Positions 4,859 through 54,201 of a stretch of 54,323 bases of DNA are shown piece by piece. A program made the translations under genes and the position numbers. The DNA lies in the IMG/VR virus record IMGVR_UViG_3300037311_000228, positions 1 through 54,323 of that record, one strand, 5' to 3'. The first letter of the stretch is position 1; each line of letters opens with the position of its first letter. The stretch comes from a virus (Duplodnaviria; Caudoviricetes). The notes beneath the pieces were generated by a model. That model was not told the DNA's origin, did not search any database, and worked only from the letters and a program-made list of their open reading frames with translations.

Positions 4859-5382
4859 CAGACAAAAAAGAAGCCAAAAAGCGAAAGGACGTTGAGATCG
4901 AACAACGACGGATGAAGATAGCCGCCAACTATCTCGCCGGGATGGACTACCGCGATACAGCGGCTGCGCTCAACGTGTCCCTCGGTACGGTCGCTGGCGA
5001 CATGAAAGCGATCCTCGGTCAGTGGCAAAAACATTATGCCGCCGATCTCAACAAACGGCAGGCGCTTCAACTCAAGCGCCTTGACGTGATGCTGAATGGT
5101 ATTTGGAAGAAAGCACGCGATGGCGATCTGGCGGCGATAGATCGTGTGCTGAGCATCATGGCGCAAGAGTCGCGCATTTTGGGCTTGGACAAGATCAAAC
5201 TTGACCATACGACCGACGGGAAGCCCATGCCGGGGATCACGGTCGTCAACCCTGTGCTGGCGCTATCAGATGAGCAGGTCACGGCGGCGATGAAACTGCT
5301 GGAACACCTCACCGCGCCGCCTGCGCCCGCCATCGATCTGCCACTGAACACGAGCGGAGCGGTGGAAGGGGGGCAAGTATGA
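4849..5382 (+). CDS. Terminase small subunit
   Basis: N-terminal HTH, GDLAAIDRVL...RILGLD; directly before the large subunit. Confidence 0.8.
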   Translation: MSIADKKEAKKRKDVEIEQRRMKIAANYLAGMDYRDTAAALNVSLGTVAGDMKAILGQWQKHYAADLNKRQALQLKRLDVMLNGIWKKARDGDLAAIDRVLSIMAQESRILGLDKIKLDHTTDGKPMPGITVVNPVLALSDEQVTAAMKLLEHLTAPPAPAIDLPLNTSGAVEGGQV

Positions 5383-10816: not shown

Positions 10817-13049
10817 ATCGTCTTTGTCGCCGCGTCGGGCGGCGATCACCGCGCTTGATGATGTGCTGGGCGAGATCGAGGGGTATATCCACGTTTGGAA
10901 CCCGCCCGGCTCAGTCGATGAGTATGGGACGTGGTTTGATCGCGAGTCGCCACCCGAACTGGCGCTCGACTTTTTGCCCCTCCCCGTTAGCTACGAACAC
11001 GCGATGGACAAGATCGTCGCTAAAGAGATCGTCGGCAAAATTGAACGGCTCTGGTTCGATGACGTGGGGCTGCGCTTCAGCGCGCAACTCAACCGCGCAT
11101 CTCCATTCTTTCAGCGCATTGTCAATGAAATTCGCGCAGGCAAGCTGGCAACCTCCTCCGCCACAGCCGAGCATTTGTCTGAATTCGACGCCGACGGGCG
11201 CTTCGTCAAATGGTGGCTGTCCGAGTTGGCATTGACAGCCGATCCAGCCGAGAATACGATGCCTATTGTGACGCTCGTTCGTTCTATGCCACGAGGTGCG
11301 GGGAATCCGCACGGCGCTGACGATGGAGCGCGAACCGTTACGAGTACAGGACAAAGAAATATGGAGATCAACCAGATCATCGCCGACGCGATGGCAGCGG
11401 GGGCGTCCCCGCAAGAGATCATCGCCGCACTTACGGCGCAAGGGATCAGTGTCGAAGACTTGATGGCGCTGCTTCAGCAAGCCGCGCAACCCGCACCCGA
11501 AGCAGAAGCGACCTTGAGCGCGCCCGTCGCGCCGTCCGCACAACCGAACGTCGCGCAAACTGCCGCCAGCGCGCTGGCGCAGTTGATCCAAAGCGGCACG
11601 GGCGGGCAGCGCCGCGCGCCGAACACTGCATCCGATCCGATGGCGGGGCAGATCGCCGCGCTTCAGCAGCAGGTCGCCTTGATGCAAGCCTCACAGCGTC
11701 AGCAGCAAGCCGCGCCGCCCGTGTCACCGCAGAACGCCGCCACCCCGCGTGGACGCAGCGACGTGTTTGTCGTTGATCCCTATGCCCACCTGACTCCGGC
11801 ACAGATGGCAACCGCCTACGCGCTGATGATGTCGTCGCCACAGCGCGAACGCAGCGACGAGCGGAGCGGCGCGAGCGAACCGTTCATGCGCGCGATGACC
11901 TACAAAAGTGCCGTGGCGGCGGAAGCGGGCGATCCGGTCAACGGCAATTACGCTGTTCGTTCGCTCTTCCCCGGTATGTCTGGGCGCGGCGGACGACCGC
12001 TGCGCGCCAACGAAGCGATGCAGTCGAACTTGAGCGGGTTTGGGGACGAGTGGGTGTACGCCTTGCAGGGGACGTCCATTTGGGAGGCGCTGCGCGCCGA
12101 AACGCGGCTTTTCGATCTGATGCAGCAGAAGGGGATGGAAGTCCGCGAGTTGCCCATGGGGTTCGAGGGCGAGACCGTCCCGCTCGAGGGCGCAGATATG
12201 ACGTGGTACGTGGCGGGACAGGCGGCGGATGAAGATGCGAGCAGCGGGATGCTCACGCCGACCTTCAGCCCGTCCAAGGTGCCTACGCCCACCTCGAAAA
12301 CCATTTCTATCGCCAAGCTGTCCGCGCGTACACCGTGGACCGCGGAGCTGAACGAGGACAGCTTCGTCAACATGGCGGCGGAGATCGAGCGGAAGGTTCG
12401 CGTGAGCGGCGCGGAGCAGATCGAGTCCATCCTGCTCAATGGCGACACCGATCCGACCGCGAACACGAACATCAACCTGATCGATGGGACGCCCGCCGCT
12501 GCGCCCGCGCGTCCCGCTTACACACTGCTCAATGGGCTGCTCAAGTTGGCGTTGGTCACGAACACGGGTAATTCCCGCGCGTGCGGAGCGATCTTCGACG
12601 AACTCGACTTTTTGGAGACGCTCAAGATGCTCCCCGTGAAGTCCCGCACTGATCGCGCGAAGCTGCTCTACATCCTCGACCCCGACACGGCGTTGGTCGC
12701 CGCGAACATTCCGGCGGTCAAAACGCGGGACTCGTTCTCGCCTGCGACGCTCGAACAAGGCAACCTGACGAGCATCTACCGGATCGACGTGTACGAGTCG
12801 GCGTACCTCGCTCTCGCCAACACCGTCGGCAAGATCAGCGGCACAGCGGGAAATAACATGCACGGTCGTTTGACCATCGTGCGCCCAGACCAGTGGGCAT
12901 TCCGCTGGAAGCGCAAGATGAAAACCGATCTGGCGTATACGCCGCGCAGCGACTCGTATGAAGTCGTCGTCCACATGCGCTTGGGGTGGGTGTCGCGCGA
13001 CAACGAAGCCTCCGCTGTGACCTATGGCATCCCGCAGGCACTGGTCTAG
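10800..13049 (+). CDS. Prohead protease-scaffold-major capsid fusion
   Basis: Protease D..G..F, YEH, VGKI, SELALT..PA; Q/A-rich scaffold; HK97-fold ELNEDS, ILLNGD, NGLLK; in-frame internal ATG with RBS at 11361. Confidence 0.85.
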   Translation: MRLFHRSSLSPRRAAITALDDVLGEIEGYIHVWNPPGSVDEYGTWFDRESPPELALDFLPLPVSYEHAMDKIVAKEIVGKIERLWFDDVGLRFSAQLNRASPFFQRIVNEIRAGKLATSSATAEHLSEFDADGRFVKWWLSELALTADPAENTMPIVTLVRSMPRGAGNPHGADDGARTVTSTGQRNMEINQIIADAMAAGASPQEIIAALTAQGISVEDLMALLQQAAQPAPEAEATLSAPVAPSAQPNVAQTAASALAQLIQSGTGGQRRAPNTASDPMAGQIAALQQQVALMQASQRQQQAAPPVSPQNAATPRGRSDVFVVDPYAHLTPAQMATAYALMMSSPQRERSDERSGASEPFMRAMTYKSAVAAEAGDPVNGNYAVRSLFPGMSGRGGRPLRANEAMQSNLSGFGDEWVYALQGTSIWEALRAETRLFDLMQQKGMEVRELPMGFEGETVPLEGADMTWYVAGQAADEDASSGMLTPTFSPSKVPTPTSKTISIAKLSARTPWTAELNEDSFVNMAAEIERKVRVSGAEQIESILLNGDTDPTANTNINLIDGTPAAAPARPAYTLLNGLLKLALVTNTGNSRACGAIFDELDFLETLKMLPVKSRTDRAKLLYILDPDTALVAANIPAVKTRDSFSPATLEQGNLTSIYRIDVYESAYLALANTVGKISGTAGNNMHGRLTIVRPDQWAFRWKRKMKTDLAYTPRSDSYEVVVHMRLGWVSRDNEASAVTYGIPQALV

Positions 13050-35107: not shown

Positions 35108-35136
35108 AGTATACCGTAGATAAATGGTATTGTCAA
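35108..35136 (-). promoter_or_regulatory. Near-consensus sigma70 promoter
   Basis: TTGACA-17bp-TATACT on the minus strand. Confidence 0.88.
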
Positions 35137-35254
35137 TACCATTTATCTACGGTTTTCTCGATGAACATGTGCAAATTTTGCACATGTTCATCGAGAAGTT
35201 GGAAAACGTTCCAAACACTTGGAAATTTCTCCAAACGTTTGGAACACCTTCCAA
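35113..35254. repeat. Palindrome cluster: 41-bp and 43-bp perfect palindromes plus three 16-bp TTGGAA-N4-(T/C)TCCAA units
   Basis: 35113-35153, 35155-35197; units at 35199, 35219 and 35239. Confidence 0.9.
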
Positions 35255-35260
35255 GCGGGA

Positions 35261-36744: not shown

Positions 36745-37276
36745 ACAATGTCTGTATCTGCCGGCGCGACACAAGCAGATCGCGCCGCCGCTCCGCGAGT
36801 AACAAGTCGTGCCGGCGCTTCGCCTCGTCAAGCCATCTGTCCAGATAGCCGATAAGCGCGGCTTGCTGCTGACGCTCGGTCTTTGTCAAAGAGAGCGCGT
36901 GTTGCACTTTTGCCTCATTGATCCGCTTAGAGACATGCAATATCTCGGCGTTCCGCCAAGCAAGCCGTTCGTCGATGGGTAGTAGGTCGTAACGCGCCCA
37001 CGCGACGAAATAATAGCCCTCGCGGGCGACACCAAATGTTGCGATGGGCGCGGGGGTGCAATAATTCCCCGACGGCGCGCTAAAGACCATCTGAGCGCCC
37101 GCTTGCCAGACGCCGACAGCGCTGATCGTGCGTGTGATGCCATTGCGTGGGTTGACCCACGTCGTCCCGATCAGGGCGTCGAAGATCATGCCGAGATCGA
37201 TCAATTCAGAAGATGGCGCTGCACCCGCGAAAATGCCTGACGCGGGGAAATGGCTTTTGAGTGGTATGCCGATCAT
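36743..37276 (-). CDS. Hypothetical protein
   Basis: AAGGA RBS; ends at the terminator. Confidence 0.65.
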   Translation of the reverse strand: MIGIPLKSHFPASGIFAGAAPSSELIDLGMIFDALIGTTWVNPRNGITRTISAVGVWQAGAQMVFSAPSGNYCTPAPIATFGVAREGYYFVAWARYDLLPIDERLAWRNAEILHVSKRINEAKVQHALSLTKTERQQQAALIGYLDRWLDEAKRRHDLLLAERRRDLLVSRRQIQTL

Positions 37277-39548: not shown

Positions 39549-40661
39549 TCATGACGCGATCTCGTGATCAAATTTAACAATACGTTCACCGATCCATTTT
39601 GCGACTGGCACGCATACTGCATTGCCAAGCATTTGATACCGCGCGCTGTCTGACACCAATTTCCCGTTTTCACAGAACGCCGTCCACCCATCGGGGAAGC
39701 CTTGCAGGCGCTCACACTCTATTGGCGTCAGTCGTCGAACGCCGATAAGCGATCCGCTGATAACGATTTCGCCGCCACCATCACCTCTTACTAAGGTGGG
39801 GGTGATGTTTTTGCCAATCGGCATATGATGTGACACGCTGGCATTGCGCTTGAAAGCCACCAGATCGGAACTTCGTGTCAATGTTGGCGCGTAATGTCGC
39901 GGCACACTGCCGTTGGCGATACTCGTCACCTGCTGCAAGTCCACAATGAGGAAATCCGCCTCGTTTGCTTGCCCCGCCGGACGTGCTGTTCCCGCGCCTG
40001 ATCCCGCCAGCGTTCCGGCGATCACAGGGGTGGATCGTTCGAGTCGTCTAGGATGATTTTCTCCAGAGCCTCTATAAGCGGATAGGGCAGCGTCTTCCCC
40101 CTTTTGTCGGCGCGACGGAGAATGCCCGCCGCTGCTTTCGCGCTCAAAAAGTACTTCAGCGGCACGCCCGCCTCCAAGATGTCCGACAATGAACAGGCGG
40201 CGGCGGCGCTGTGGGACTCCCCAATGTTGAGCGTCCAACACGCGCCAAGCGACGCGATACCCGATGTTCCCCAGCCCGCGAAGGACAACGGCAAAGTCCC
40301 GTCCTCCATTAGAGGATAGTAGACCGGGGACGTTTTCGATAACGACCCATCGAGGTAGAAGCTCCATAAGAACGCGCTCGAACTCAAACCAGAGCCCAGA
40401 TCGCGCTCCAGCCAACCCCGCGCGGCGTCCGGCAACGCTGAGGTCTTGACAGGGGAATCCGCCGCAAATAAGGTCAACTGGCGGAAGGTTGGTTTTTCCG
40501 ACATGGCACACATCCTTGAATTGAAGGACGGAAGGGTAATGACGACGGAGGACGCGCCGCTTTTTGGCGTTCGACTCGACCTGCGCGGCGCAAGTCATAC
40601 CCGCGCGCTCAAAGCCCAAGTCGAAGCCGCCAATGCCTGCAAAAAGGCTGATGAAACGCAT
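39549..40661 (-). CDS. DNA cytosine-5 methyltransferase (alpha chain)
   Basis: FAGIGG, GGFPCQ, ENV, QRRRR and LGNAV motifs. Confidence 0.95.
   Translation of the reverse strand: MRFISLFAGIGGFDLGFERAGMTCAAQVESNAKKRRVLRRHYPSVLQFKDVCHVGKTNLPPVDLICGGFPCQDLSVAGRRAGLAGARSGLWFEFERVLMELLPRWVVIENVPGLLSSNGGRDFAVVLRGLGNIGYRVAWRVLDAQHWGVPQRRRRLFIVGHLGGGRAAEVLFERESSGGHSPSRRQKGEDAALSAYRGSGENHPRRLERSTPVIAGTLAGSGAGTARPAGQANEADFLIVDLQQVTSIANGSVPRHYAPTLTRSSDLVAFKRNASVSHHMPIGKNITPTLVRGDGGGEIVISGSLIGVRRLTPIECERLQGFPDGWTAFCENGKLVSDSARYQMLGNAVCVPVAKWIGERIVKFDHEIAS
40022..40504 (-). CDS. Nested alternative-frame methyltransferase beta polypeptide
   Basis: SLSDILE..VPLKYFLS.KAAAGILRRA..RGKTLP..L.EAL, resembling the M.EcoHK31I-type beta chain. 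Confidence 0.75.
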   Translation of the reverse strand: MSEKPTFRQLTLFAADSPVKTSALPDAARGWLERDLGSGLSSSAFLWSFYLDGSLSKTSPVYYPLMEDGTLPLSFAGWGTSGIASLGACWTLNIGESHSAAAACSLSDILEAGVPLKYFLSAKAAAGILRRADKRGKTLPYPLIEALEKIILDDSNDPPL

Positions 40662-41848
40662 CACGCAGCACCTCCCACTGACTTGGCGCGTGCCGCTTTC
40701 GCGCGCTGGCGATACCGCGCCGCCTGTACGCGCGCAAAACGGCGATAGTCGATCTGCAAATGCAGCACCCCCCATTGCTGCACGTCCCATTGGCTGCCAC
40801 CCTCGCTCAGCTCTGTCGCTTCGCGTTCTTTCGCCGCCGCCATCGCGTTGAGCGCGGCGACGTGTTCGCGCATCGATACGGGGGCTTCTGCGCCATTGGC
40901 GAAATAACGCGCCTTCGCCAACAGATAGTCGCGGTCTGCGCCGTCGGGCAGCGACTCGGCTTCACGGCAATATCCGTTGGCGATGGACTGGCTGTCCGCC
41001 AACATCGCTTGTGCATAGCGCGCGCGATCTTTGTCCGTCCAGACCACGCCGTCGATCCGCGCAGACAGTGGGACGGCGAGCCTATCTGTAGAGCTGTTCA
41101 TCGGTACGGCGGGCGCATCGAACAACGAGTGCGGCGGCGTTTCAACGCCGATGGCATCTACATAGGTTGGCGTTCCCCATGCGTGCGATCCGGCGCGCCG
41201 GGCGGTATTCCACGCCGTCCGATACAACGCCTCATCATGTCGCTGCTCTGGGTTGATGAAGGGCAAGCCGAACAGCGCGTAGAAGGCGGCTTCGTCGGGG
41301 ACGCTGATCCGCTTGTCGCTGTGCCAAACGCTGCCTTCACGGATGGTGTACGGGCAGTCCATGAATTTGAGCTCGGCAGCGAGACTCTGCGCGCGTGCTG
41401 CCGCCTCTTCACGGATGGTGTACGGGCAGTCCATGAATTTGAGCGCCTTCATGAACCATTTATTCTTGTCGGCGCTGCCCGTGCGCAGCCAATAGATGTA
41501 GCCCCACGAGTGCGCGTTCGTCACCCACAGCTCGATCTTCATGCCGTCCATGACGACGCCGCGCAGCTTGTCACCCCATTGATGCTGAGGCTTCATATTG
41601 CCGATCTTGTCACGCGACTCGCCGTACACCGCCTTCGCCAGCGTGCCGTCAGCGACCATACGATCTAGCGCATCAAGATAGCCGACGGACGGGATCAGCA
41701 CGATCTCGCCGTCGCCCACATCGGGCTTGCATCGCCGGATCGATCCGGCGATCTCGGCGCGCTCTACATACGGCGCGATGAGGGTCAATAGGCGCTCGAC
41801 CCGTTGTCGGGCGTCACTGAGGGGGTAGCGCGCGCCGCTAGACATCAT
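40661..41848 (-). CDS. PolX / DNA polymerase beta-like nucleotidyltransferase
   Basis: IAGSIRR.K.DVGDGE, RTGS, E..FY..FGLPFINPEQR. Confidence 0.85.
   Translation of the reverse strand: MMSSGARYPLSDARQRVERLLTLIAPYVERAEIAGSIRRCKPDVGDGEIVLIPSVGYLDALDRMVADGTLAKAVYGESRDKIGNMKPQHQWGDKLRGVVMDGMKIELWVTNAHSWGYIYWLRTGSADKNKWFMKALKFMDCPYTIREEAAARAQSLAAELKFMDCPYTIREGSVWHSDKRISVPDEAAFYALFGLPFINPEQRHDEALYRTAWNTARRAGSHAWGTPTYVDAIGVETPPHSLFDAPAVPMNSSTDRLAVPLSARIDGVVWTDKDRARYAQAMLADSQSIANGYCREAESLPDGADRDYLLAKARYFANGAEAPVSMREHVAALNAMAAAKEREATELSEGGSQWDVQQWGVLHLQIDYRRFARVQAARYRQRAKAARAKSVGGAA
41335..41444. repeat. 38-bp exact direct repeat flanking a 34-bp insert inside polX
   Basis: 41335-41372 equals 41407-41444. 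Confidence 0.95.
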
Positions 41849-43181
41849 CTACCCACAAATTATCGAATCGGGTGAATTCGGGGCGGAACACCAGCGGGAT
41901 CGTCCCTGTCGCTCCGTGTCGGTTTTTTGCGATGATCAAGTCCGTCTCCCACGACGCGGCGAACGGATCGCTGTCCATCTTGCGAAAGGGAAATAGGACG
42001 CTATCCGCCGCTTGTTCGATCTCGCCGCTGTCGCGTAGATCGTTCATTTGGGGACGCTTGTCAGCGCGGGATGCCACGCTGCGCGAGAGTTGCGCCGCGC
42101 ACAGCACCGGCACGCTCATCTCCGAACTGATATGCTTCAACGCGCGCGCGAAATAGCTGGTCTTGGCGTAAGCATTGTCTTTGAAGTTGATGTCACTCCC
42201 CATCAACCCCAAGTAGTCGATGACCACGAGATCGACGCCGCCCAGCCGCGCTTGCGTGCGTTGAATATCGGCGCGCAGAGCGGGCGGCGTGATCGCGGCG
42301 TGGTCATTGATCACGATCTTCCATGTGCCGATCTCGGCGGCGGCGCGCAGCACTTCGCTGTGCTGCTGGTCGTCCAACCCGTGCGGGCGAAGTTGACGAC
42401 GAACGCGGGACGAGTCCACCCGCGCAACCCCCGCGATGAGCCGATTCGTGATCTGCGCAGCGGGCATTTCGCCCGACCACAAATAAACGCGCTTGCCGCG
42501 TGCTGCCACATTCGCAACCATAGAGGCAAGCAGGGCGCTCTTGCCGCCGCCAGGTCGCGCGCCAACGACGCACAACCCCATCAACCCATCAAGCATATGG
42601 TCGAGATCGGGGTAGCCCGTCACCAGCCCCGAATACCCGCTCGCTGCTTCCTGAGACACGTCTTCTAATTCGTTCAAATAGATGCCTACGGCGTCGCGGA
42701 TCGGGATGGATTCGCCAGACGTGGAATGCCCCAGAAGCACATCGTTGATAGCCGCCGCCGCCGCCGCCAACACCGCATCAGTCTCTTTTTCTCCATCCAA
42801 TGCGAGTGCCGTGACGGTCTCTGTCGCTTGCAGCAGCGCACGGCGGGCGGCTGCTCGCTCGACCAGCCGGGCGTAGACTTCGGCATTGACCGACGTGGGG
42901 GTGTCGGTGATCAACTGCATCAGGTAGCCCATGCCGCCGATCTCCGCGAGTCGCCCCGTCGCGTTGAGGCGAACCGAAACTGCCACCACGTCAGGCGGCA
43001 AGCCCTCACCGTGAAGCGCAAGGATCGCTTCCCAGATCAATCGATGGCGAACAAGGAAAAACATCCCCGACGCGCCCAATACCCCCTTTGCCACCGTCAA
43101 CACGGCGGGGTCGAGCAACACAGCGCCAAGCACCGCGCGCTCGGCTTCTTCCACATACGGGATAGCCGTCGTCTGTGTCAT
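41838..43181 (-). CDS. dnaB: Replicative DNA helicase
   Basis: EAERAVLGAVL, GARPGGGKS, IDYLGL, AQLSR, LRDSGEIEQAAD, AKNRHG. Confidence 0.95.
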   Translation of the reverse strand: MTQTTAIPYVEEAERAVLGAVLLDPAVLTVAKGVLGASGMFFLVRHRLIWEAILALHGEGLPPDVVAVSVRLNATGRLAEIGGMGYLMQLITDTPTSVNAEVYARLVERAAARRALLQATETVTALALDGEKETDAVLAAAAAAINDVLLGHSTSGESIPIRDAVGIYLNELEDVSQEAASGYSGLVTGYPDLDHMLDGLMGLCVVGARPGGGKSALLASMVANVAARGKRVYLWSGEMPAAQITNRLIAGVARVDSSRVRRQLRPHGLDDQQHSEVLRAAAEIGTWKIVINDHAAITPPALRADIQRTQARLGGVDLVVIDYLGLMGSDINFKDNAYAKTSYFARALKHISSEMSVPVLCAAQLSRSVASRADKRPQMNDLRDSGEIEQAADSVLFPFRKMDSDPFAASWETDLIIAKNRHGATGTIPLVFRPEFTRFDNLWVDDV

Positions 43182-44119
43182 TTGTCGTTCCCCCCATTGC
43201 CAATCTCGCTGCCCGCGTCCTTTCCGCCCATTCCCATTGCCAATCTCGCTACCCGCGTCCTTTCCGCCATCATTTGCCGCTCCGCGAGCGGAATTGGCGG
43301 CGGGATAACTATGCGTGGGGTTGGTGACGATGGTGGCGCGGAAGGCGTCGTTGGCGGCGGCGCGCCGTTTGCGGGGGCGGGACGCCGCGGACTATCAATT
43401 TCATCGCGTGCCATCCGCTTGAGGATCGCGTGGATGTATGTCCAACGGCGGACGTTCGACGCTGCCGCCTCGCGGATCGCCGTTTCGAGGGCATGGGAGG
43501 CGCGATCTTCCCCCGTTGTCTTGAATTGGGGTTCCGCAAGCCACATGTTGATCGCATCGACGATGAGCGGGGTCAGCGCGCCGATGTTTTGTTCGTACAG
43601 CGTGAAGACCGCCCCCCGCTTGGGATCAGTATCACGATCAGCAGCAGCAGCAAGCGCGTCTTCTTCTATTGGTTCTTCTTCTTTCTTCTTTGGTTCACCA
43701 CATGAACGCTGCACGGGAAGATCAGCGTTCATGTGGTGAACGCTCCGTTCGTGTGGTGAACGCTCCGTTCGTGTGGTGAACGCGGGCTTGGCGTACCGCT
43801 GGCAATTCTCAGCCATACGGTCAACAAGGCGCACGATCAGAGTCGCCTGCGCGCATCGCTTTTCGATGGTGATGTATCCCATCTTCTCAAGCTGGCGGCG
43901 GGCAGCGACCACTTTCCCTACCGACATGCGCGTGATCGCGGCGGTCGTGGTCGTTGCCTCAAAGCACTCACCGCCATCCCCGCAGACGCGGCGGTAATGC
44001 CCCAAAAGGCGGTATTGGTATGGGTCGAGATCGTCATCCGCCATGTTGAGGATGATGTGGAAGTATTTCGACGGCGATCCCTGATCCGAGATGCGTTGAG
44101 TCATTTTGGGTTTTGACAT
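43178..44119 (-). CDS. Replication initiator (wHTH plus DnaD-like domain)
   Basis: VFTLYEQNIGALTPLI...AIREA...WTYIHAILKR; internal repeats. Confidence 0.85.
   Translation of the reverse strand: MSKPKMTQRISDQGSPSKYFHIILNMADDDLDPYQYRLLGHYRRVCGDGGECFEATTTTAAITRMSVGKVVAARRQLEKMGYITIEKRCAQATLIVRLVDRMAENCQRYAKPAFTTRTERSPHERSVHHMNADLPVQRSCGEPKKKEEEPIEEDALAAAADRDTDPKRGAVFTLYEQNIGALTPLIVDAINMWLAEPQFKTTGEDRASHALETAIREAAASNVRRWTYIHAILKRMARDEIDSPRRPAPANGAPPPTTPSAPPSSPTPRIVIPPPIPLAERQMMAERTRVARLAMGMGGKDAGSEIGNGGNDK
43693..43783. repeat. Iteron-like repeats, probable replication origin
   Basis: CGTTCRTGTGGTGAACGC three times at a 20-bp period (43726, 43746, 43766) plus an inverted 19-bp copy at 43693-43711. 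Confidence 0.75.
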
Positions 44120-44433
44120 CACTCCCATCCGTTCCCGTCGCTAAATGCGCGTGCAAGATTCGATACCCACGACACGGCTTCATCCGCGCCGCGCAAAACA
44201 ACTACGTCCATGCCGTTCCAGCGGTTTTGGAAGGCGCCTTGTTCGGCGCTTAGCTTGCCAGTAGCGGACTTGACCTCTGCCAAAAAGGTCATGCCGCCGT
44301 ACCCAACCAGCAGATCGGGTACCCCCTTTTGGGATAAGCGAACGACGGTCGCGCCGCAGCGGGTCAACGCCTCTACGATCTCAGCTTCATTCGCGTCACG
44401 CTTTGCCGCGCGGCGCGGAATACCCTTTGTCAT
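44119..44433 (-). CDS. VRR-NUC-like nuclease
   Basis: GVPDLLV...AEVKS..GKLSAEQ. Confidence 0.8.
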   Translation of the reverse strand: MTKGIPRRAAKRDANEAEIVEALTRCGATVVRLSQKGVPDLLVGYGGMTFLAEVKSATGKLSAEQGAFQNRWNGMDVVVLRGADEAVSWVSNLARAFSDGNGWE

Positions 44434-44478: not shown

Positions 44479-45360
44479 TTATTCTGTTGATGCGAGTTGT
44501 TCGCGCGTCTTGCGAACGGCTTCATCGGCGGCGGCGCGCCCGCCCGTCCACTCGCTCCAGCGCGCGACTCCGAGTGCCGCGCGCAAGGCTTCTTGGGAAA
44601 CGCCCTGAGCTGCCCATGACGCTATCCATGCGTTCACAGCGTCTGGCGTCCACTCGTCCGCTAGGGAGTCCGCTGCCGCGATCTCGTCTTGTTGCTGCAC
44701 CCGCTCACCATCGGCATAGGCGCGCGCGAAAGGCTCAAAGACAGACCAATTGACGCTTGGCAAGTGCGCGGGCAGGTTTTGTCCGCGCGACTTGATCACC
44801 GTCCCCGAATGATCGGGCAGCAGCCGAACAACAAAATCCATGGCGTAGGACAGCGACTTATCCGCATCGGGTTTGATGCCCGTGCGCGTAAGCTGTCCAT
44901 TGGTTGTTTCATATTCGTAAGACTCCCGCGCGATCAAGATGGTATGCACGGGCAGATTCGTCAGTTGGGTATACAGCGACTTCATCCGCGTGTTGACCTT
45001 CGACCACTCGCGGAACCCCAGTTCGTTGTTTTTCGCCGTCTTCGCCATGCCTTCTTTCAGCACGTCGTAAAAGACGGTGATCGGGTCGATCACCAGCGTG
45101 TCGAAGGTCTTGCCTTTGTCGTCGCGGATGAACGCAACGGCGTGTTCAAGGTCAGCCACCGTTTTGGTGCGCATCACTTGAAAAGGTGCGACCCCGGATC
45201 GTCCGGTGTACAGGTCTGCGCCCGACTCAGCGTCCACAAGTGCGACGCGCGGAAAGGAAAGGGCAGCGAGAGTTTTCCCCGATCCGGGCGCGCCGAAGAA
45301 CAACAGCTTGAGTTTCTTGGCAACGAGCGCGGCGTTGCTGAACGGGTTTTGTAATGCCAT
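44479..45360 (-). CDS. AAA ATPase, Sak4-like recombinase
   Basis: GAPGSGKT, VDAESG, TLVIDPIT. Confidence 0.85.
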   Translation of the reverse strand: MALQNPFSNAALVAKKLKLLFFGAPGSGKTLAALSFPRVALVDAESGADLYTGRSGVAPFQVMRTKTVADLEHAVAFIRDDKGKTFDTLVIDPITVFYDVLKEGMAKTAKNNELGFREWSKVNTRMKSLYTQLTNLPVHTILIARESYEYETTNGQLTRTGIKPDADKSLSYAMDFVVRLLPDHSGTVIKSRGQNLPAHLPSVNWSVFEPFARAYADGERVQQQDEIAAADSLADEWTPDAVNAWIASWAAQGVSQEALRAALGVARWSEWTGGRAAADEAVRKTREQLASTE

Positions 45361-45471
45361 GCGATACTCCTTTGTGCTATACTCATGCACGGACGCCTCC
45401 ACCTGAGCATGTGCGTCCGTGCTGTACGGTTAGCGGCTTTCGACAGCCGCTTTTTGATTCGCCACCTTGCT

Positions 45472-46606: not shown

Positions 46607-47130
46607 CAGTAGCTCCTTTCGTGGTTGCGTTCCGCAACTTGGATAAACAAATTCCCTGTCCCCCCGTGCGCCCGATCCCCGCCCGCGAAGTCGCATTTGA
46701 CTTGGAGGCGCACTGACGCGCGCAAAAGGAGGTCTGTCCCCGCGATCTGCATTTCTAGATCGCGGACAACTTCCTGCGACAGTGGCAGCGCGATCAACCC
46801 CGCCGCGATCCCCGCCTGCACCAGCTTGAGGGCAAGCAGTCCCTTTTCTGAGGGGCGCATGTCCGCGCGGATCGGGTACGCGCGCCACATGCTAAGAGTG
46901 AGCGCAAAACTTTGACACCCGGGGATGTCATCTGGCGGGACGAGATATCCCTCTGCTGTCAGGCGTCCGTTGATGTAGACCGGGACGCGGCGATAGCGCG
47001 TCAGCGGCATCGCCTGCGCCGCCGTCGTCGCGTAGACATACACGCGGCGCGCCATGGGACAGACGTGCGCACGCACATCGCTTTGCTCGGCGATGATCCC
47101 GTAGGGGATCAGACCTTCGTGAGCGATCAT
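46606..47130 (-). CDS. Hypothetical protein, possible PD-(D/E)xK nuclease fold
   Basis: QIAGTDL...QVKCD...TGNLFIQ. Confidence 0.5.
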   Translation of the reverse strand: MIAHEGLIPYGIIAEQSDVRAHVCPMARRVYVYATTAAQAMPLTRYRRVPVYINGRLTAEGYLVPPDDIPGCQSFALTLSMWRAYPIRADMRPSEKGLLALKLVQAGIAAGLIALPLSQEVVRDLEMQIAGTDLLLRASVRLQVKCDFAGGDRAHGGTGNLFIQVAERNHERSY

Positions 47131-49829
47131 GATGCCGCCTCCTTTTGATCGATCTCGTTGCCGAATGTCGCCCAACCGGGACGGCTGCGGCGCGCGAACA
47201 ATTCGAGATAGCTACAGCCGGGATACAGCGTTTCGAGCATCGTGTGTACGCTGTCCGGCTTGCGGCTGTGTTCCTGCACAGCCGCGCTGATCACGCTGCT
47301 CAGTGGCGGGGAAGGGTTGACGAGTGGCGTCATGCTGCCCCGCGTCGCCACGAGCAGGTGTTCGTGATGAATGCGCGTGTACCACCCGTTGCCGGGCTTC
47401 TGCAGATCGGTTTTCACCCAGACGATATTCGTCTTGTAGGTGAAGTCCCACGCATCGATCACCGCAAACGCATCTCGCAAAAATGGCGCAGTTGTCCAGA
47501 GGAACAGCACCGCGTTGGGTGCCACCCTGAACGAGTAGTTGTTGAGCAAGGCGCAAATGTCCGGCAGCGGCATGGGATCGTAGTGATTCGCCGCCGCCCC
47601 ATTGACCCCCTTGTTGTCGTATTCCCACGGGGGATCGGCGAGGATCACGTTGTAGGTTTTGGCAGCGAGACTCTGCGCGCGCGACGCCGCCTCCGCCCTG
47701 CGCGCTTCAACCGCGATCTGACGGTGCAAGCGCGCCTTCAGATCAATCGCCTCGCGCAATGCCTTGTAGCCCGCTGATCCTGCTACCGCGTCGGTCTCGT
47801 CCGTCAGTTGGATGAAGCCCGACGCCGCGATGTCCTCCCACCAGCCGGCGTTATTGCGCGCGCCGTCGGCGAACAGATCGATCACGTCGGGGTCGTCCAC
47901 CCCGAGATTCCGCGCGACTATCTGCACTTGCTCAGGGGCGCGTCGCAGCGACGCGCTGACCAATGCCGCGCGTCGCTCGGCGGCGATCTCAAGCGCCGTC
48001 TTGCGCGGTTGGGCGGGCGGCTGCACAGCGGGCAGCGGGGGGACTGACGGCGGCACATTACGGATGTGGACGCCGTTCCCATTGCCGTGAGAGTCGGGGA
48101 CAAGCAGCGGCGTCGGTGACTTCGCATCGCGCGCGGCGACCCGCTCGATCTCCGCCGCGCCCCGCGCGCGCAGTTCGGGCAGCAGTGGATGAGCCGCTTC
48201 GCAGAACCACACCATCAGCGTGGTCGTGCTGACCCCGCCCAAGCCCGCACTTGCGCCGGGTTCAATGTCTGCGCCCGCCGCCAAGACAATGTAGCCGAGC
48301 GACTCGATCTTGGCACGAGCGTTGTCCAGCGCGTCGGTCACGCGCTCCGGGATGATGCCCGCCGCGTAGGGCGTGTTCAGCGCGACGCTGAACGTCCCCG
48401 CGTTGCCATTGCGCTCGTGACGGACGACGCGCGTCATATCAACGCCGGCGTTCATGAGTCTGATGCTCATGTCGCGCACGGTCAGCGCGCCCGGCTCTGG
48501 CGCGGGCAGGTTGGCGAGCGCCTGCGGTGCCTGCTTGCCGAGCAGCAGCCAGCCGCTCGGTTGCAGTTGCAGCGCGCCCGCCGCATCTTCAGCCACGTAT
48601 CCTGCCTCCACCAACGTGTTCAGGCGCGCCCGATCATTTTGGAAGATGCGCGCCTCTAAAGACGTGAGCCACGGCTTGCGGCTGTAGCGGTGAGCATCCC
48701 AGAGCTTTTCGAGGATGCTCCGCTTGTGCGATGAGATCGGTTCGCCATCGGCAACGCGGACGCGCGCGAATGGCACATGGCGCGCGTCCGTCGTATCGCT
48801 ATCGACGATCACGCCGTCCTCGTCAACCGCAACGACTTCGTACAACCCGCCCCCGAGGTTGATGATGCTGCCGATGTCCACGTTCGGCGCGAGTGCGGGT
48901 GCAGGTGCAGGGGCGGCGTCGCCGTCGTCTGCGGCGGTGGTCGTCGTGGTTTCACCCGCGCGCAGAACATCACGGGCGAAAAAGCGGTGCGTCGAGCGGC
49001 TTTCGTTGATGTACACCTCATACGGGGCAAACAAAGCGCGTGGGTTGATATAGCGCAGGACGCCCGCACGTCCGCGCGCCAATACGCGCTCTCCGATCCG
49101 GATGTCGAGCGAGGCGGGGATCGGCACGGCGTGGCTGTGCGGGATGTGTGCCTGCCCGCCCTCATCTACATCGACGGTCACATCGCGGTCTCCGATCTCG
49201 ACGACCACGCCCGCGATACGCCGATTCGTGCGGTCAACGACCCGCGCACCGAGTACGATGCTCGGATGCAGGTTCGCACGCGGCGGCAGTGCCTCGGACG
49301 ACTCATTGGCGCGGGTGCCGATGTTGGCGGTGTTCTGGGTGTAGGTCGCGCCGCCGCGCTGTACAACGCGCGCGTCTATCTTCGGAATTTCCGAAGATGC
49401 TTCGAGTGCTGCCCGCACAGCACCAACGGTTTTATCGCTGACCGCAACGTGCTTGGCGATATCATTATTGGACTTACCCGCACCCTGTGGGTGCAGCAGA
49501 GCGGCGCGGATGGCGCGCCGCTTGTCCTCGTTGGTACGCGGCAAGCCGTGCGTGGCATTGACGGCGTAGCTGCGCCACTGCGCGTCTTCCAGCGTTCCGG
49601 TTTCGACGATGAAGTCGAATTCCTTCCAGTTGGCGCGCTTGGCGGCTTCGATCCGGTGAAAGCCGTCGATGAGCCAGTAGCTCGACCCGTCGTAGACCAC
49701 GCGGGCAGGCGGGAACTGGTCGCCGCGCTCCAGTGCCTCAGTGTAGACGGTGACTGTTTCTTCGTGCAGCCCGCCGCGCGGCTGTGTGCCGCCATCGAGC
49801 CGAACATCCGCAACTTTCAACGTTGTCAT
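47127..49829 (-). CDS. Multidomain ParB-like N-terminus / MT-A70 adenine methyltransferase
   Basis: LIDGFHRIEAA and NATHG; C-terminal ADPPW, LFLW, EHSRKP, ELFAR. Confidence 0.9.
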   Translation of the reverse strand: MTTLKVADVRLDGGTQPRGGLHEETVTVYTEALERGDQFPPARVVYDGSSYWLIDGFHRIEAAKRANWKEFDFIVETGTLEDAQWRSYAVNATHGLPRTNEDKRRAIRAALLHPQGAGKSNNDIAKHVAVSDKTVGAVRAALEASSEIPKIDARVVQRGGATYTQNTANIGTRANESSEALPPRANLHPSIVLGARVVDRTNRRIAGVVVEIGDRDVTVDVDEGGQAHIPHSHAVPIPASLDIRIGERVLARGRAGVLRYINPRALFAPYEVYINESRSTHRFFARDVLRAGETTTTTAADDGDAAPAPAPALAPNVDIGSIINLGGGLYEVVAVDEDGVIVDSDTTDARHVPFARVRVADGEPISSHKRSILEKLWDAHRYSRKPWLTSLEARIFQNDRARLNTLVEAGYVAEDAAGALQLQPSGWLLLGKQAPQALANLPAPEPGALTVRDMSIRLMNAGVDMTRVVRHERNGNAGTFSVALNTPYAAGIIPERVTDALDNARAKIESLGYIVLAAGADIEPGASAGLGGVSTTTLMVWFCEAAHPLLPELRARGAAEIERVAARDAKSPTPLLVPDSHGNGNGVHIRNVPPSVPPLPAVQPPAQPRKTALEIAAERRAALVSASLRRAPEQVQIVARNLGVDDPDVIDLFADGARNNAGWWEDIAASGFIQLTDETDAVAGSAGYKALREAIDLKARLHRQIAVEARRAEAASRAQSLAAKTYNVILADPPWEYDNKGVNGAAANHYDPMPLPDICALLNNYSFRVAPNAVLFLWTTAPFLRDAFAVIDAWDFTYKTNIVWVKTDLQKPGNGWYTRIHHEHLLVATRGSMTPLVNPSPPLSSVISAAVQEHSRKPDSVHTMLETLYPGCSYLELFARRSRPGWATFGNEIDQKEAAS

Positions 49830-50005
49830 GCAGCGTCCTCCGGCGCTTGCTCGTTCATCTGCTGCTCGATCCGGGCTGCCAGCGACGGCAGCACCGCCGC
49901 CAAGCCGGGAAACATCGCTCGGAGGGCGGCGGCGTCCAGCACGTCCGACGCCGCGCACGGGATGAAGCCGGGCTGCTGGGACAGGGGGAGTTTGAGATCG
50001 CTCAT
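49826..50005 (-). CDS. Hypothetical protein (59 aa, below the ORF-track cutoff)
   Basis: GGAGG RBS, MSDLKLP...; stop overlaps the next ATG. Confidence 0.5.
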   Translation of the reverse strand: MSDLKLPLSQQPGFIPCAASDVLDAAALRAMFPGLAAVLPSLAARIEQQMNEQAPEDAA

Positions 50006-50007
50006 GA

Positions 50008-50322
50008 CTATCTACCTCCCTGTGCGCGGGGGAGGACGTACATCTCTGCCTCGCGCTGCGCATCTTCCACGCTGGCAGAGTCTAGGAGCGCGATCACCCC
50101 AACCTCTTTCAGATGACTGATCTGGGCTTGAGTCGCCAGCATCATCACTTTGCGCGTGGTCGGGGCGGAAAGCACCCCATTTTCGACATACTCACGGTTC
50201 ATCGTCTCGACGAGAGCATCGAGGTCGGCTTGCGTCCCGCGCGACATAGCGCGGAGCGACTCTGCCGGCGTGTTCAGTCCGTAGGGGCGCCGTTCGCGCG
50301 GCATGTCATTGTCTCCTTTCAT
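50008..50322 (-). CDS. Hypothetical protein
   Basis: AAGGAG RBS before MPRERR; start uncertain. Confidence 0.6.
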   Translation of the reverse strand: MKGDNDMPRERRPYGLNTPAESLRAMSRGTQADLDALVETMNREYVENGVLSAPTTRKVMMLATQAQISHLKEVGVIALLDSASVEDAQREAEMYVLPRAQGGR

Positions 50323-52580: not shown

Positions 52581-54176
52581 ATGCCTAAACCCCTCCGTGC
52601 CATCCTTTGGGTTGCCGTATCAAGCCGCGTGCAAGCAGACGAAACAGAGAAAGAAAGCCTCCCTGATCAGGAGCGCCGTCTGCGCGCCATTGCCACAGCA
52701 AAGAGCTGGCAGGTGGTCGATCTTCTCAAAGTACCGGGACATAGCCGCGTTTACTACAATTTCGACCAGTTCACAGAAGCGGCACTGTTGGACGGCATTG
52801 ATGCGGGAGCGCGATTGACCACGCACTGGGAGCGCCAAGACTTTGATGTGTTCGTTTTCACCGACGGCGACCGTTTTGGACGCGAACAGTCCATCTTCAG
52901 CGAGGTGGTCGCACGAACCATTGATGCCGGCGCGTTTTTATACAGCGCCAAAGAGGGCGAAATTATGCGCGGAAACCATCGCATGTACGCGGCGATGGCA
53001 GGCTACCGGGCGGCGTCGGAAATTGATGAGATGAAGCGGCGCTATCAAATGGGCATGGATAAGTTGGCAGAACGCGGGGCGTACACGGGTTCTTATGGGA
53101 CGATCTGGTCTCATCGTCTTGTTCGGGACGAACTTGGAAAGGTGCAACGCATCGAAGTCGATCCCGACAAGCTGCTGATCTTTCAGGACGCAGCGACGAT
53201 TATTCTGGAACACGTTGCTTGGAGTCACATCGAGCGCGAATTGTTCACCCGCTTCGGTCACGGTGAAGACGGCAGACCGTTTCCGCCGAAACGAATTTAC
53301 TACACCATCATGCACCCTGTGTTCTGGGGACACAGCGCGCGCAAATTTCGCAGTCACGATCTCAAATACCGCCAAATCGGACATTGGGTATTTGATGAGT
53401 CGATCACTCCGAATCCGCCCGCGCAAGTCTGGCGCAACACGCACCAACCCATGTGGACGGGTGAACTCGCTGAACGGATCAAAGCGGAGATTCGTTGGCG
53501 TTCGGAGACGGCACAAGCGCGCGCGGCTCGTGTACAGACGCATTTGTTCACGGGTCTGCTGATCTGCGACCAATGCGGCAAACGATTGTCATACTATATT
53601 CATCAGGGTGGGCGTTATTCGTATTTATCATGCGATTCGCGCGACGAAAACAACCGTAAGAACTGTCCAAATTCGGTTGGTATCCGCGAGTCGGACGTAG
53701 AAGCCTTTTTTCGCCAGAGCATTCACACTGCTCTACAAAGCCAAGACTGGTCACTGCTGCTCGGACAAGCCAGCGCCCCAGAACCCGTGCCGCTGGACGC
53801 ATTGGAGGCGCGTGTGAAGGCGCTGGCGACGCGACTGGACGCGCTGATCGATAAACAGGTGAGCGCACCAACGGCGGCACATGATCGCTACCGTCTTAAA
53901 ATTGAAGAAACCGCCAACGACCTTCAGCGCCTTCAAGCTCGCCTTGATGCTGAACGCGCTCAACACATGCAGCGCGCCCGTCATACGACGATCCAGACGA
54001 GCGCCATCAAAGACGTGGTAGCGCTCGGCGAAACGGTGTTTTGGAGTCAATCCCCTGACGACATCAACAAAATGCTGCGCGCCATGCTCGGTGTCAATGC
54101 GCTGGTCGTGCGCGCCGGAAAAATCATCGGCGCAGCGCCATTCATCAAAAAGAAACCCCACTTTCGCAAAAACTAA
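52581..54176 (+). CDS. Large serine recombinase (integrase)
   Basis: AVSS..Q, SLPDQ, DRFGR, recombinase domain, GLLICDQCG zinc ribbon, coiled coil; stop abuts the att arm. Confidence 0.95.
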   Translation: MPKPLRAILWVAVSSRVQADETEKESLPDQERRLRAIATAKSWQVVDLLKVPGHSRVYYNFDQFTEAALLDGIDAGARLTTHWERQDFDVFVFTDGDRFGREQSIFSEVVARTIDAGAFLYSAKEGEIMRGNHRMYAAMAGYRAASEIDEMKRRYQMGMDKLAERGAYTGSYGTIWSHRLVRDELGKVQRIEVDPDKLLIFQDAATIILEHVAWSHIERELFTRFGHGEDGRPFPPKRIYYTIMHPVFWGHSARKFRSHDLKYRQIGHWVFDESITPNPPAQVWRNTHQPMWTGELAERIKAEIRWRSETAQARAARVQTHLFTGLLICDQCGKRLSYYIHQGGRYSYLSCDSRDENNRKNCPNSVGIRESDVEAFFRQSIHTALQSQDWSLLLGQASAPEPVPLDALEARVKALATRLDALIDKQVSAPTAAHDRYRLKIEETANDLQRLQARLDAERAQHMQRARHTTIQTSAIKDVVALGETVFWSQSPDDINKMLRAMLGVNALVVRAGKIIGAAPFIKKKPHFRKN

Positions 54177-54201
54177 TTGTTGGGCGCGGTTCACTTATCC
54201 T
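54177..54201. repeat. Right attachment site: 23-bp phage arm plus CT core (54200-54201)
   Basis: TTGTTGGGCGCGGTTCACTTATC followed by CT. Confidence 0.95.

Follow-up and report, generated by a model that had tools for sequence, protein, structure and literature searches.

A recent in-frame target-filler-target insertion in a phage Pol X-like gene, with a filler copied from the phage's own MT-A70 gene or a close allele

We describe a phage whose Pol X-like gene carries a recent, derived and in-frame 72-bp insertion of the target-filler-target kind, templated by the phage's own genome, a reading to which we assign a probability above 0.9. The filler was copied from a stretch of the phage's own MT-A70 gene, located 6.3 kb away in the same genome and in the same orientation, or from a close allele of that stretch. 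Both genes lie in the window, i.e. the whole stretch of phage DNA analysed here (54,323 nucleotides), and the features of interest are collected in Table 1.

Structure and source of the insertion

An exact 38-bp duplication flanking a 34-bp insert had been noticed in a first-pass annotation of this DNA, and we recovered it with the same coordinates and sequences. The duplicated unit, A (CTTCACGG...TTTGAGC), is present in two copies that are identical at 38 of 38 positions and spaced 72 nt from start to start, with the 34-nt filler, B, between them. The resemblance of B to the MT-A70 gene was reproduced too: positions 41375-41407 equal 47661-47693 at 30 of 33 positions, the initial 21 being identical, on the same strand and in the same reading frame, and two more bases extend the homology to the donor-like tract of Table 1. 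Base 41407 fits A and the donor tract equally, and the structure can alternatively be read as 37 + 35 (+ 37) instead of 38 + 34 + 38. Both junctions are blunt, with a donor/target overlap of at most 1 nt at either of them, short of the microhomology of at least 2 nt at switch points that characterises FoSTeS/MMBIR-type events.

Table 1. Features of the insertion, of its recipient gene and of its donor (positions in the window)
Feature	Position	Strand	Description
Recipient gene	40661..41848	-	Predicted 395-aa mini Pol X-family protein (Pol beta-like palm and thumb) plus C-terminal extension; from ORF and translation
A copy 1	41335..41372	-	Second LKFMDCPYTIRE, residues 160-171; takes the native thumb position in the AF2 model
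Filler B	41373..41406	-	Encodes EAAARAQSLAAE, residues 148-159; perfect 7-bp inverted repeat
A copy 2	41407..41444	-	First LKFMDCPYTIRE, residues 136-147; first base, 41407, also matches the donor
Donor-like tract in MT-A70 gene	47659..47693	-	31/35 to 41373-41407, same orientation and codon phase; imperfect inverted repeat (quasi-palindrome)
Donor gene	47127..50063	-	Long ORF with C-terminal MT-A70 methyltransferase domain, residues 804-970

The net gain of 72 bp preserves the frame of the recipient, as had also been proposed: it reads LKFMDCPYTIRE-EAAARAQSLAAE-LKFMDCPYTIRE, and the donor tract reads EAASRAQSLAAK, which by coordinate arithmetic corresponds to residues 791-802 of the 978-aa product, just ahead of the MT-A70 domain. 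The first 78 or so residues of the donor ORF are rich in Arg and Pro and may not be translated. As for the phage itself, it is a freshwater, temperate one, with a serine integrase at 52581-54176.

The homology of this spacer-like filler to the phage's own MT-A70 gene, as put forward in the first-pass annotation, is beyond chance in both tests that we applied. Allowing up to three mismatches, the 33-mer occurs twice in the window, at its own position and in the donor, against a mean of 0.00 in 100 dinucleotide-preserving shuffles. In a background set of 1358 33-mers, one per 40 nt of the window, the best non-self matches ranged from 18 to 28 of 33, none of them reaching the 30/33 of B; the five sampled 33-mers with 26 or more all fall in other repeats of the genome (the terminal inverted repeat, the repeat region at 32.2-32.5 kb, A itself and a 40-bp tandem duplication). 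A third template of at least 12 nt for the junctions or for the mismatched part was found nowhere in the genome, any matches being 11 nt at most. Scanning the genome at periods of 40-120 gave no second structure of the A-B-A kind; apart from A-B-A itself, it picked up the 40-bp tandem duplication and, at 7853, a weak match with a 65-nt period that proved on reading to be a repeat of about 16 nt. The tandem duplication (40 bp x 1.9, 43193-43268, 97% matches) is another recent short duplication of the phage, and it sits in the replication module. An old 72-bp tandem duplication, in which B would be the diverged 34 nt flanking A, was rejected: the left flank is only ~8/34 identical, by eye.

Of the 34 positions of B, four (2, 24, 26 and 27) differ from the donor. 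Three of these differences are compensatory and turn the imperfect inverted repeat of the donor into a perfect one, i.e. they raise inverted-repeat complementarity as expected of quasi-palindrome mutation. The result in B is CGGCAGC/GCTGCCG at B positions 2-8 and 25-31, forming a stem that spans the filler. The perfect stem measures 4 bp in the donor and 7 bp in B, with an MFE of -5.6 and -8.1 kcal/mol, respectively; among random four-fold mutants of the donor, 2.5% attain such a stem and 8.7% its folding energy, figures of limited weight since the pattern was spotted post hoc. The fourth difference, at B position 24, weakens the stem (G-C to G-T). Unit A, for its part, folds no better than its shuffles (z -0.63). 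DGR-type mutagenesis was rejected as a source of these differences, which are not adenine-specific.

The 38/38 identity of the A copies marks a recent event, and their 0 differences in 38 positions compared with the 4 in 34 between B and donor give a Fisher p of 0.045. The mismatches had been interpreted in the first-pass annotation as signs of an older event or of a donor from a related phage. The intact A copies weaken the idea of an older event; since three of the four differences are compensatory, they are better accounted for by one template-switch event, or by another allele of the donor, than by gradual drift.

The recipient protein and the evidence from its sample

Profile and structure comparisons predict that the recipient is a member of the DNA polymerase X family. 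A profile of 36 family members matched PolX of T. thermophilus (3b0y, E 2.3e-10) and also Pol lambda, and a Foldseek search with the AF2 model retrieved 3au2 (E 6.5e-10, prob 1.00). Pfam gave for this protein a sub-threshold thumb match alone (21.4 bits, cut-off 25), and there was no PHROG match. The GS..RR..D.D/E palm motif is present and followed by the thumb, and G35, S36, R38, R39, D46, E48 and E106 are invariant or nearly so among 36 aligned sequences (the recipient protein and 35 homologues).

None of 149 homologues has a residue in the columns of the insert (0/35 in a smaller alignment), and none of the 149 repeats any 8-aa word exactly within 80 aa. This is what the first-pass annotation had anticipated, namely homologues with one copy and no insert, and by these alignments the insertion is derived and lineage-specific. 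The thumb segment encoded by A aligns with the 149 homologues and with T. thermophilus PolX. In the AF2 model the extra 24 residues loop out of the thumb, between its last helix and its beta-hairpin, which may be why the insertion is tolerated. The model places strands at residues 167-170 and 173-176, i.e. with the second copy in the native strands, and the mean pLDDT of the corresponding 10-residue blocks is 78 (161-170) and 93 (171-180). Confidence is low over residues 140-162, with pLDDT below 50 at 140-146, and a low-confidence helix at 147-160 covers the stretch encoded by the filler. Whichever mechanism holds, a mini Pol X thumb can carry a 24-residue loop without loss of the gene.

The presence of the structure in the underlying data was checked in Logan contigs and unitigs of run X1, an independent k-mer assembly (k=31); the run is probably the source sample, so the assembly is independent and the sample is not. 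The Logan assembly breaks exactly at repeat A. The left contig extends up to 41364 with a depth of 12.4 and the right contig starts at 41415 with a depth of 14.1, while A is a 38-nt unitig of its own (depth 20.9) and a 94-nt unitig (41343-41436, depth 12.1) crosses both junctions and carries B with its own letters. Support for the insertion, which the first-pass annotation had wanted to see in reads, thus comes from a unitig that spans both junctions at flank-like depth. Judged by the depth of A alone, an insert-free minority allele could reach about 40%; the B unitig puts its likely share at about 10% at most, and by these unitig depths the insertion is close to fixed in the phage population.

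The A-B-A-bearing sequence is known from one sample only. Searches of phage records with DNA and protein gave no match, the terminase reaching at most 29.9% identity there, and a word-indexed protein search returned the query itself alone among 8000 scored candidates. Viral contigs searched with the protein and two DNA patterns gave no match either; in genome contigs, searched with the large terminase, there were 16 pattern matches, of which 0 were confirmed. The B/donor pattern had 0 matches in metagenome contigs and 0 in genome contigs, and the exact B allele was absent from the viral, metagenome and genome contigs searched. The 21-mer core had five metagenome matches, all of them with unrelated flanks. 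No close relative of the phage, with a pre-insertion or a donor allele to compare, came out of these collections.

Candidate mechanisms

The first-pass annotation offered two origins for the insertion, ectopic acquisition by Cas1-Cas2 or templated break repair. Neither could be proved, and the choice between them is not settled. Off-target integration by Cas1-Cas2 into phage or prophage DNA is the leading single mechanism, which we hold tentatively and at less than even odds, because the Cas1-Cas2 spacer integrase is, to our knowledge, the sole enzyme making such a stagger with an insert of such a size. A spacer-sized double-stranded fragment would have been joined to both target strands, 37-38 bp apart, and the filling in of two single-stranded gaps would have duplicated the target, A-B-A being the product expected of one staggered strand-transfer reaction. 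The prespacer would come from this phage or a co-resident relative, and the CRISPR of the host would combine repeats some 36-38 nt long with spacers of some 34-35 nt. The cluster of mismatches between B and donor would probably reflect one later quasi-palindrome template-switch event, or have pre-existed in the donor allele, and the A-B-A unit would be a scar and not a working CRISPR array.

The lengths support this proposal, as do the blunt junctions and a filler of phage origin. The insert of 34 bp (35 with the ambiguous base) falls in the range of spacers, about 30-40 bp. According to PMC7913763, the repeat lengths of bacterial CRISPR arrays have peaks near 28 and 36 nt and the spacer lengths one at 30-35 nt; against these values, the 37-38/34-35 geometry adjoins the 36-nt repeat peak and lies within the spacer peak. 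Arrays of type I-G, as described in part of PMC12915315, have 36-bp repeats and 35-36-bp spacers. Integration by Cas1-Cas2 elsewhere in the genome is documented for E. coli in portions of PMC7054753, PMC6698737 and bioRxiv 10.1101/148544. Blunt junctions and the absence of a third template in the genome fit fragment ligation or strand transfer better than microhomology-primed copying, and because the phage is temperate, as its serine integrase indicates, its DNA can sit in the host chromosome, exposed to the adaptation machinery. Weak support comes from the 20 nt beside A copy 2, which are 65% A+T, at the 97th percentile of the genome; the percentiles at 15, 30 and 40 nt are only 68-89. The two donor flanks, where a PAM would be looked for, read GTT/TTT and CCG.

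Several observations count against Cas1-Cas2. At 38 nt, A is 1-2 nt above the common 36-nt repeat peak. B is inexact, whereas a fresh spacer is expected to be exact, and its hairpin signature points to polymerase template switching, which the integrase model does not need. Cas1 was absent from the phage in a search that found it in 7 of 14 control genomes; A has no Rfam CRISPR-DR match at E <= 10, in a collection with few repeat families. Lastly, this is a single case.

The more specific version, a natural fossil of Cas1-Cas2 mis-integration in which a 37-38-bp polX stretch of a prophage was used as a pseudo-repeat, is a little more speculative than off-target integration as such. The integrase would have carried a piece of DNA from this phage or from a superinfecting relative, and the outcome would be a one-unit 'neo-CRISPR' that is carried, packaged and expressed as 24 extra amino acids. 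If Cas1-Cas2 is indeed responsible, this would be the first natural CRISPR-integrase spacer in a phage gene within the literature searched. Adaptation would then be a source of phage mutation, and scars of this sort could help to predict host CRISPR types. Were such events general, CRISPR adaptation would act as a mutagen on phage genomes at large, and the scars would keep a record of the repeat and spacer lengths of otherwise unknown hosts.

Repair or template switching, taking both of their forms together, comes near to an even chance without reaching it. The first form, replicative or repair template switching of a FoSTeS/MMBIR-like type with a quasi-palindrome, is unlikely on its own. In such a scenario a nascent 3' end would leave polX after A, switch to the MT-A70 gene of its own phage molecule or of a sister one, copy about 33 nt there and be dislodged when the new quasi-palindrome folds; resumption on polX 38 nt behind the point of departure would make A be copied twice, and fold-back copying in the hairpin would introduce the compensatory changes in the same event. 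A donor in cis, at 6.3 kb and in the same orientation, suits this course of events, as do a copied tract that coincides with a quasi-palindrome within about 3 nt, three of four differences that perfect the stem and the recent duplication in the replication module of the same phage. Template switching that perfects quasi-palindromes is moreover established in E. coli and phage T4, according to part of PMC7202029. The two junctions, with 1 nt of overlap or less, offer no usable microhomology, however, and every microhomology-guided return that we modelled by hand gives a product 2 nt shorter than the observed one. The stem is weakened by the fourth difference, and since B position 2 and positions 26/27 are on opposite arms, a single fold-back cannot explain all the changes. 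CRISPR-like lengths are also left without a reason. If repair is the true origin, the insertion would be complex and templated, with the signature of a quasi-palindrome, and a case both clean and rare among bacterial viruses.

Somewhat less likely still is end-joining repair with fragment capture, in which two nicks 38 nt apart, or offset breaks in sister copies, would be filled in at their ends and ligated, by a host Ku/LigD-type or alternative pathway, around a stray ~34-bp phage fragment. It would account for the blunt junctions (overlap of 1 nt or less), for a filler drawn from the most abundant DNA of an infected cell and, through selection alone, for the in-frame length; error-prone fill-in could also yield the clustered differences. 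On the other hand, two offset breaks, two fill-ins and the ligation of three pieces would be needed as independent steps, and the proposal explains neither the 38/34 lengths nor a tract bounded by a palindrome. Ku was not found in the phage, and we know of no documented phage example of such capture, nor did the literature searched provide one.

A functional mini-CRISPR array borne by the virus, processed by host Cas proteins and directed against the MT-A70 gene of competing relatives, with the mismatches sparing the phage itself, is very improbable. B does resemble a spacer that matches the phage's own gene imperfectly; phage mini-arrays targeting related viruses and not the carrier are described in an excerpt of PMC6858448, and solitary repeats in phages exist according to part of PMC10651486. 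A is, nevertheless, native coding sequence for a conserved Pol X thumb segment, shared with the 149 homologues and T. thermophilus PolX, and matches no CRISPR-DR family; the unit lies in frame inside a gene and without a leader. With in-frame coding sequence where a non-coding CRISPR repeat should be, the proposal is close to refuted.

An assembly or amplification artefact without any biological insertion, to which the single sample and the exact 21-nt core common to B and donor (21 being a frequent assembler k-mer size) might point, has almost no chance of being correct in view of the preserved reading frame and of a dedicated 94-nt junction unitig in the k=31 assembly at 12.1, with flanks at 12.4 and 14.1 and the repeat at 20.9; nor is B a mis-threaded donor copy, given its differences from the donor.

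Under Cas1-Cas2 and repair alike, the structure provides a simple search image, a target-filler-target unit whose filler comes from the same genome, that is testable at scale.

Comparison with known systems

The repeat-spacer-repeat layout in a viral genome is shared with the mini-arrays and solitary repeat units described in parts of PMC6858448 and PMC10651486. In the mini-arrays, as excerpted from PMC6858448, the 'spacer' likewise corresponds to a gene of the carrier's own virus group, with an imperfect match to the carrier itself, yet their repeats are non-coding host CRISPR repeats, whereas here the repeat is phage Pol X coding sequence. An insert between direct target duplications, with 7-bp terminal inverted repeats, also recalls the products of transposases and casposases. 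Target duplications of that class are much shorter, of 2-15 bp, and our 34-bp insert encodes nothing, its sequence being that of the phage's own gene.

Templated insertions of eukaryotes (FoSTeS/MMBIR, polymerase-theta end joining and internal tandem duplications bearing a filler) usually show microhomology at their junctions and have donors near the break. X-filler-X duplications of this sort resemble A-B-A in taking the filler from the same genome and in the survival, through selection, of products that stay in frame. In A-B-A, by comparison, no more than 1 nt overlaps and the donor is 6.3 kb distant. Quasi-palindrome-associated template-switch mutation, reportedly described by Ripley in 1982 and by Dutra and Lovett in 2006, produces clustered simultaneous changes that perfect an inverted repeat, as three of the four differences do here. 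Classical events alter a few bases in place, and they involve neither the move of 34 nt to another gene nor a 38-nt target duplication.

Off-target ('neo-CRISPR') spacer integration by Cas1-Cas2 in E. coli, which Nivala, Shipman and Church are said to have reported in 2018, shares with A-B-A a spacer-sized insert between copies of a duplicated non-CRISPR target of repeat-like length, blunt junctions and an insert originating from DNA present in the cell. The duplication is about 28 bp in the E. coli system and 37-38 bp here, and our insert departs from its donor at some positions. Unlike those of E. coli, the insertion described here is a natural one that keeps the frame of a phage coding gene and is close to fixed.

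A duplicated target around a copied insert in polX

The Pol X-like gene carries two copies of a 38-nt unit (A; 41335-41372 and 41407-41444) with 0 differences between them, separated by a 34-nt filler (B). The first-pass annotation had described an exact 38-bp duplication around a 34-bp insert, and its coordinates hold exactly. We also reproduced the donor match that it reported: positions 41375-41407, B into the first base of the second A, align with 47661-47693 in the MT-A70 gene at 30/33 on the same strand, the first 21 being identical, and the homology grows to 31/35 with two further bases. Both genes lie on the minus strand and the frame is kept, as had been claimed: in translation the recipient gives LKFMDCPYTIRE-EAAARAQSLAAE-LKFMDCPYTIRE, while the donor tract, which is two residues upstream of the MT-A70 domain, gives EAASRAQSLAAK in the same codon phase. 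At one junction only base 41407 is common to donor and target, and at the other the match stops after a single T; judged from this alignment, both junctions are blunt. Searching the whole phage genome gave no third template of at least 12 nt for any part of B or the junctions, and no second structure of the A-B-A type.

Chance is no explanation of the match between B and its donor. The 33-mer of B with up to three mismatches had 0 matches in 100 dinucleotide-preserving shuffles, and the best non-self matches of 1358 33-mers sampled from this genome scored 18-28/33, below the score of B, all five that reached at least 26 belonging to other repeats. The 21-mer core occurs five times in the metagenome collection, always with unrelated flanks, the background to be expected of a 21-mer given the size of the collection.

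The insertion is also found in the Logan contigs of sequencing run X1 (k = 31), built independently from the reads, though probably from the same sample. A 13.7-kb contig (depth 12.4) stops 30 nt into copy 1, A forms its own 38-nt unitig (20.9), a 94-nt unitig covering 41343-41436 holds B with its own letters (12.1) and a 2.3-kb contig (14.1) begins 30 nt short of the end of copy 2; the donor, with the three other letters, lies on a separate contig. These breaks are exactly those of a genuine 38-nt repeat at k = 31. Contigs and depths thus place A-B-A in the reads at near-flank depth and about the abundance of the phage, while leaving room for a minority insert-less allele. These unitigs and contigs all but rule out an assembly artefact.

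Derived state and protein context

An HMMER scan of 1.84 billion representatives (E ≤ 0.001) returned 2022 homologues, the best only 40% identical to the 395-aa recipient protein. One copy and no insert had been expected among homologues, and the insert is indeed absent from all 35 best homologues chosen by hand. A second alignment took in all 149 listed homologues: the 12 insert columns were empty in every one, the 36 columns of copy-insert-copy held at most 15 residues in any of them, and 0/149 repeated an 8-residue string exactly within 80 residues. At the insertion site one homologue (P0057) has LKFMDAPLRFEGG, indicating that A is native coding sequence and that the ancestral gene had a single copy of it. 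The polX insertion is real and well delimited: recent, lineage-specific, self-templated and accompanied by target duplication.

The recipient family is mini Pol X. Its alignment profile matches Thermus thermophilus PolX (3b0y, E 2.3e-10) and Pol lambda over palm and thumb, and an AlphaFold model (mean pLDDT 78.5) matches 3au2 at E 6.5e-10; Pfam alone gives a sub-threshold match to the thumb. In the model, helix 126-137 ends in LK of the first copy, the insert forms helix 147-160 within a low-confidence stretch (140-162), and the second copy provides the native strands 167-170 and 173-176. About 24 residues would accordingly loop out of the thumb in this prediction, and they are probably tolerated, as the model and the near-fixation of the allele suggest. 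The C-terminal extension (residues ~230-395), helical and 170 residues long, matches no family and varies in length and sequence among homologues, most of which are ~200-330 aa long. In the donor gene, the 978-aa ORF opens with 78 Arg/Pro/Gly-rich residues that look untranslated, and Met79 (MTTLKVADV...) is the more likely start; no Pfam family matches the long N-terminal part of the ORF at E ≤ 0.01.

The phage and its repeats

The 54,323-bp record, classed as linear, is 100% complete by CheckV estimate, has 60% G+C and is present in one freshwater metagenome run. PHROG matches show a phage that is, by gene content, tailed and temperate. In 50,697 phage records its terminase finds no match above 29.9% identity and, on such sequence comparison, the phage is remote from everything so far known.

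Genes and repeat features of the phage record
Feature	Position	Strand	Basis
Large terminase	5379-6770		PHROG
Portal/head-morphogenesis fusion	6771-10310		PHROG
Serine integrase	52581-54176		PHROG
Replication module: Sak4-like annealing protein	44479-45402	minus	
Replication module: DnaD/O-like initiator	43178-44128	minus	
Replication module: DnaB-like helicase	41838-43181	minus	
Replication module: Pol X-like recipient gene	40661-41848	minus	
Replication module: DNA methyltransferase	39549-40790	minus	
MT-A70 (donor) gene	47127-50063	minus	
Iteron-like units	43693-43785		
40-bp tandem duplication	43193-43268		
23-nt inverted repeat	128-150 / 54177-54199		
Palindrome cluster	35108-35255		
21-nt inverted match	11695-11715 / 36856-36876		
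C-terminal extension of Pol X-like protein	40661-41160		
Arg/Pro/Gly-rich start of MT-A70 ORF	49829-50063		

Several other repeats were observed. Three tandem 20-nt units (CGTTCRTGTGGTGAACGCTC) within the initiator gene, with an inverted copy 11 nt upstream, look like replication-origin iterons by analogy with the lambda O gene. At the 3' end of the same ORF, just upstream of the DnaB start, lies a second recent short duplication, ~1.8 kb from the polX insertion: a 40-bp tandem unit (1.9 copies, 97% matches) delimited by the short repeat CCCATT which, not being a multiple of three, altered the C-terminus of the initiator. A perfect 23-nt inverted repeat near both record ends, its right arm directly after the serine integrase gene, would have its arms ~250 nt apart if the genome were circular, and may be part of an attachment or regulatory region. 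The dense palindrome cluster between divergent gene blocks (25-nt and 21-nt arms, 92-100% complementary), which also has 20-nt TTGGAAA...TTCCAA repeats, resembles an operator or switch region. A perfect inverted match, equal in length to the exact core of the donor match, links sites 25 kb apart and shows exact 21-mers to be recurrent in this genome.

Candidate origins of the insertion

Staggered strand-transfer enzymes classically leave an insert of this kind, bluntly joined between direct duplications of its target, and to our knowledge only Cas1-Cas2 combines a stagger of ~36-38 bp with an insert of ~35 bp. A single Cas1-Cas2 reaction would account at once for the target duplication, an insert of phage origin and its blunt junctions. 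Citing papers document that, in vivo in E. coli, it also acts off-target, on non-CRISPR DNA. Passages of PMC7913763 place the peaks of bacterial arrays at 36 nt for repeats and 30-35 nt for spacers, and passages of PMC12915315 give type I-G arrays 36-bp repeats and 35-36-bp spacers; our 37-38 bp adjoins the repeat peak and our 34-35 bp falls inside the spacer peak. The first-pass annotation had proposed a Cas1-Cas2 or a templated-repair origin; the CRISPR-like lengths and blunt junctions favour Cas1-Cas2, whereas the insert is not an exact donor copy, A, which has no special fold, has no similarity to Rfam CRISPR repeat families, and the phage has no Cas1. The literature searched contained no natural case of Cas1-Cas2 integration into a phage gene, 'ectopic' acquisition in the papers found being integration inside an array. 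Cas1-Cas2 mis-integration is the most economical single mechanism, yet the case remains circumstantial, and we give it a probability of roughly 40%.

One-step polymerase template switching is a less likely origin, to which the differences between B and its donor nevertheless point. B departs from the donor at 4/34 positions (2, 24, 26 and 27, three of them within 4 nt), against none between the A copies (Fisher p = 0.045). The donor tract is a quasi-palindrome, and the changes at 2, 26 and 27 turn one wobble and two mismatches into Watson-Crick pairs, giving a perfect 7-bp stem, CGGCAGC/GCTGCCG, that covers positions 2-31 of 34 and lowers the folding energy to -8.1 kcal/mol, against -5.6 for the donor. 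Among random 4-mutants of the donor, 2.5% of trials reached the stem and 8.7% the energy; the pattern, noticed after others were tried, is suggestive only. PMC7202029 presents template switching as a well-established source of clustered, complementarity-increasing changes. Palindrome-linked switching may have acted in the same event, favouring a replicative origin of the whole structure; alternatively, it may have altered B at a later time, and then any origin would fit. Against it, hand-modelled returns guided by microhomology near the junctions (GCCT, CGCCT, GCTGCC) each gave a product 2 nt shorter than observed.

End joining with capture of a fragment we consider less likely again; the phage has no Ku. 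Other or unknown mechanisms take up the remaining probability.

Since A is conserved coding sequence, a functional mini-CRISPR array is all but excluded. In the virus-borne mini-arrays described in passages of PMC6858448 the repeats are those of the host, whereas here the repeated unit is the phage's own coding sequence.
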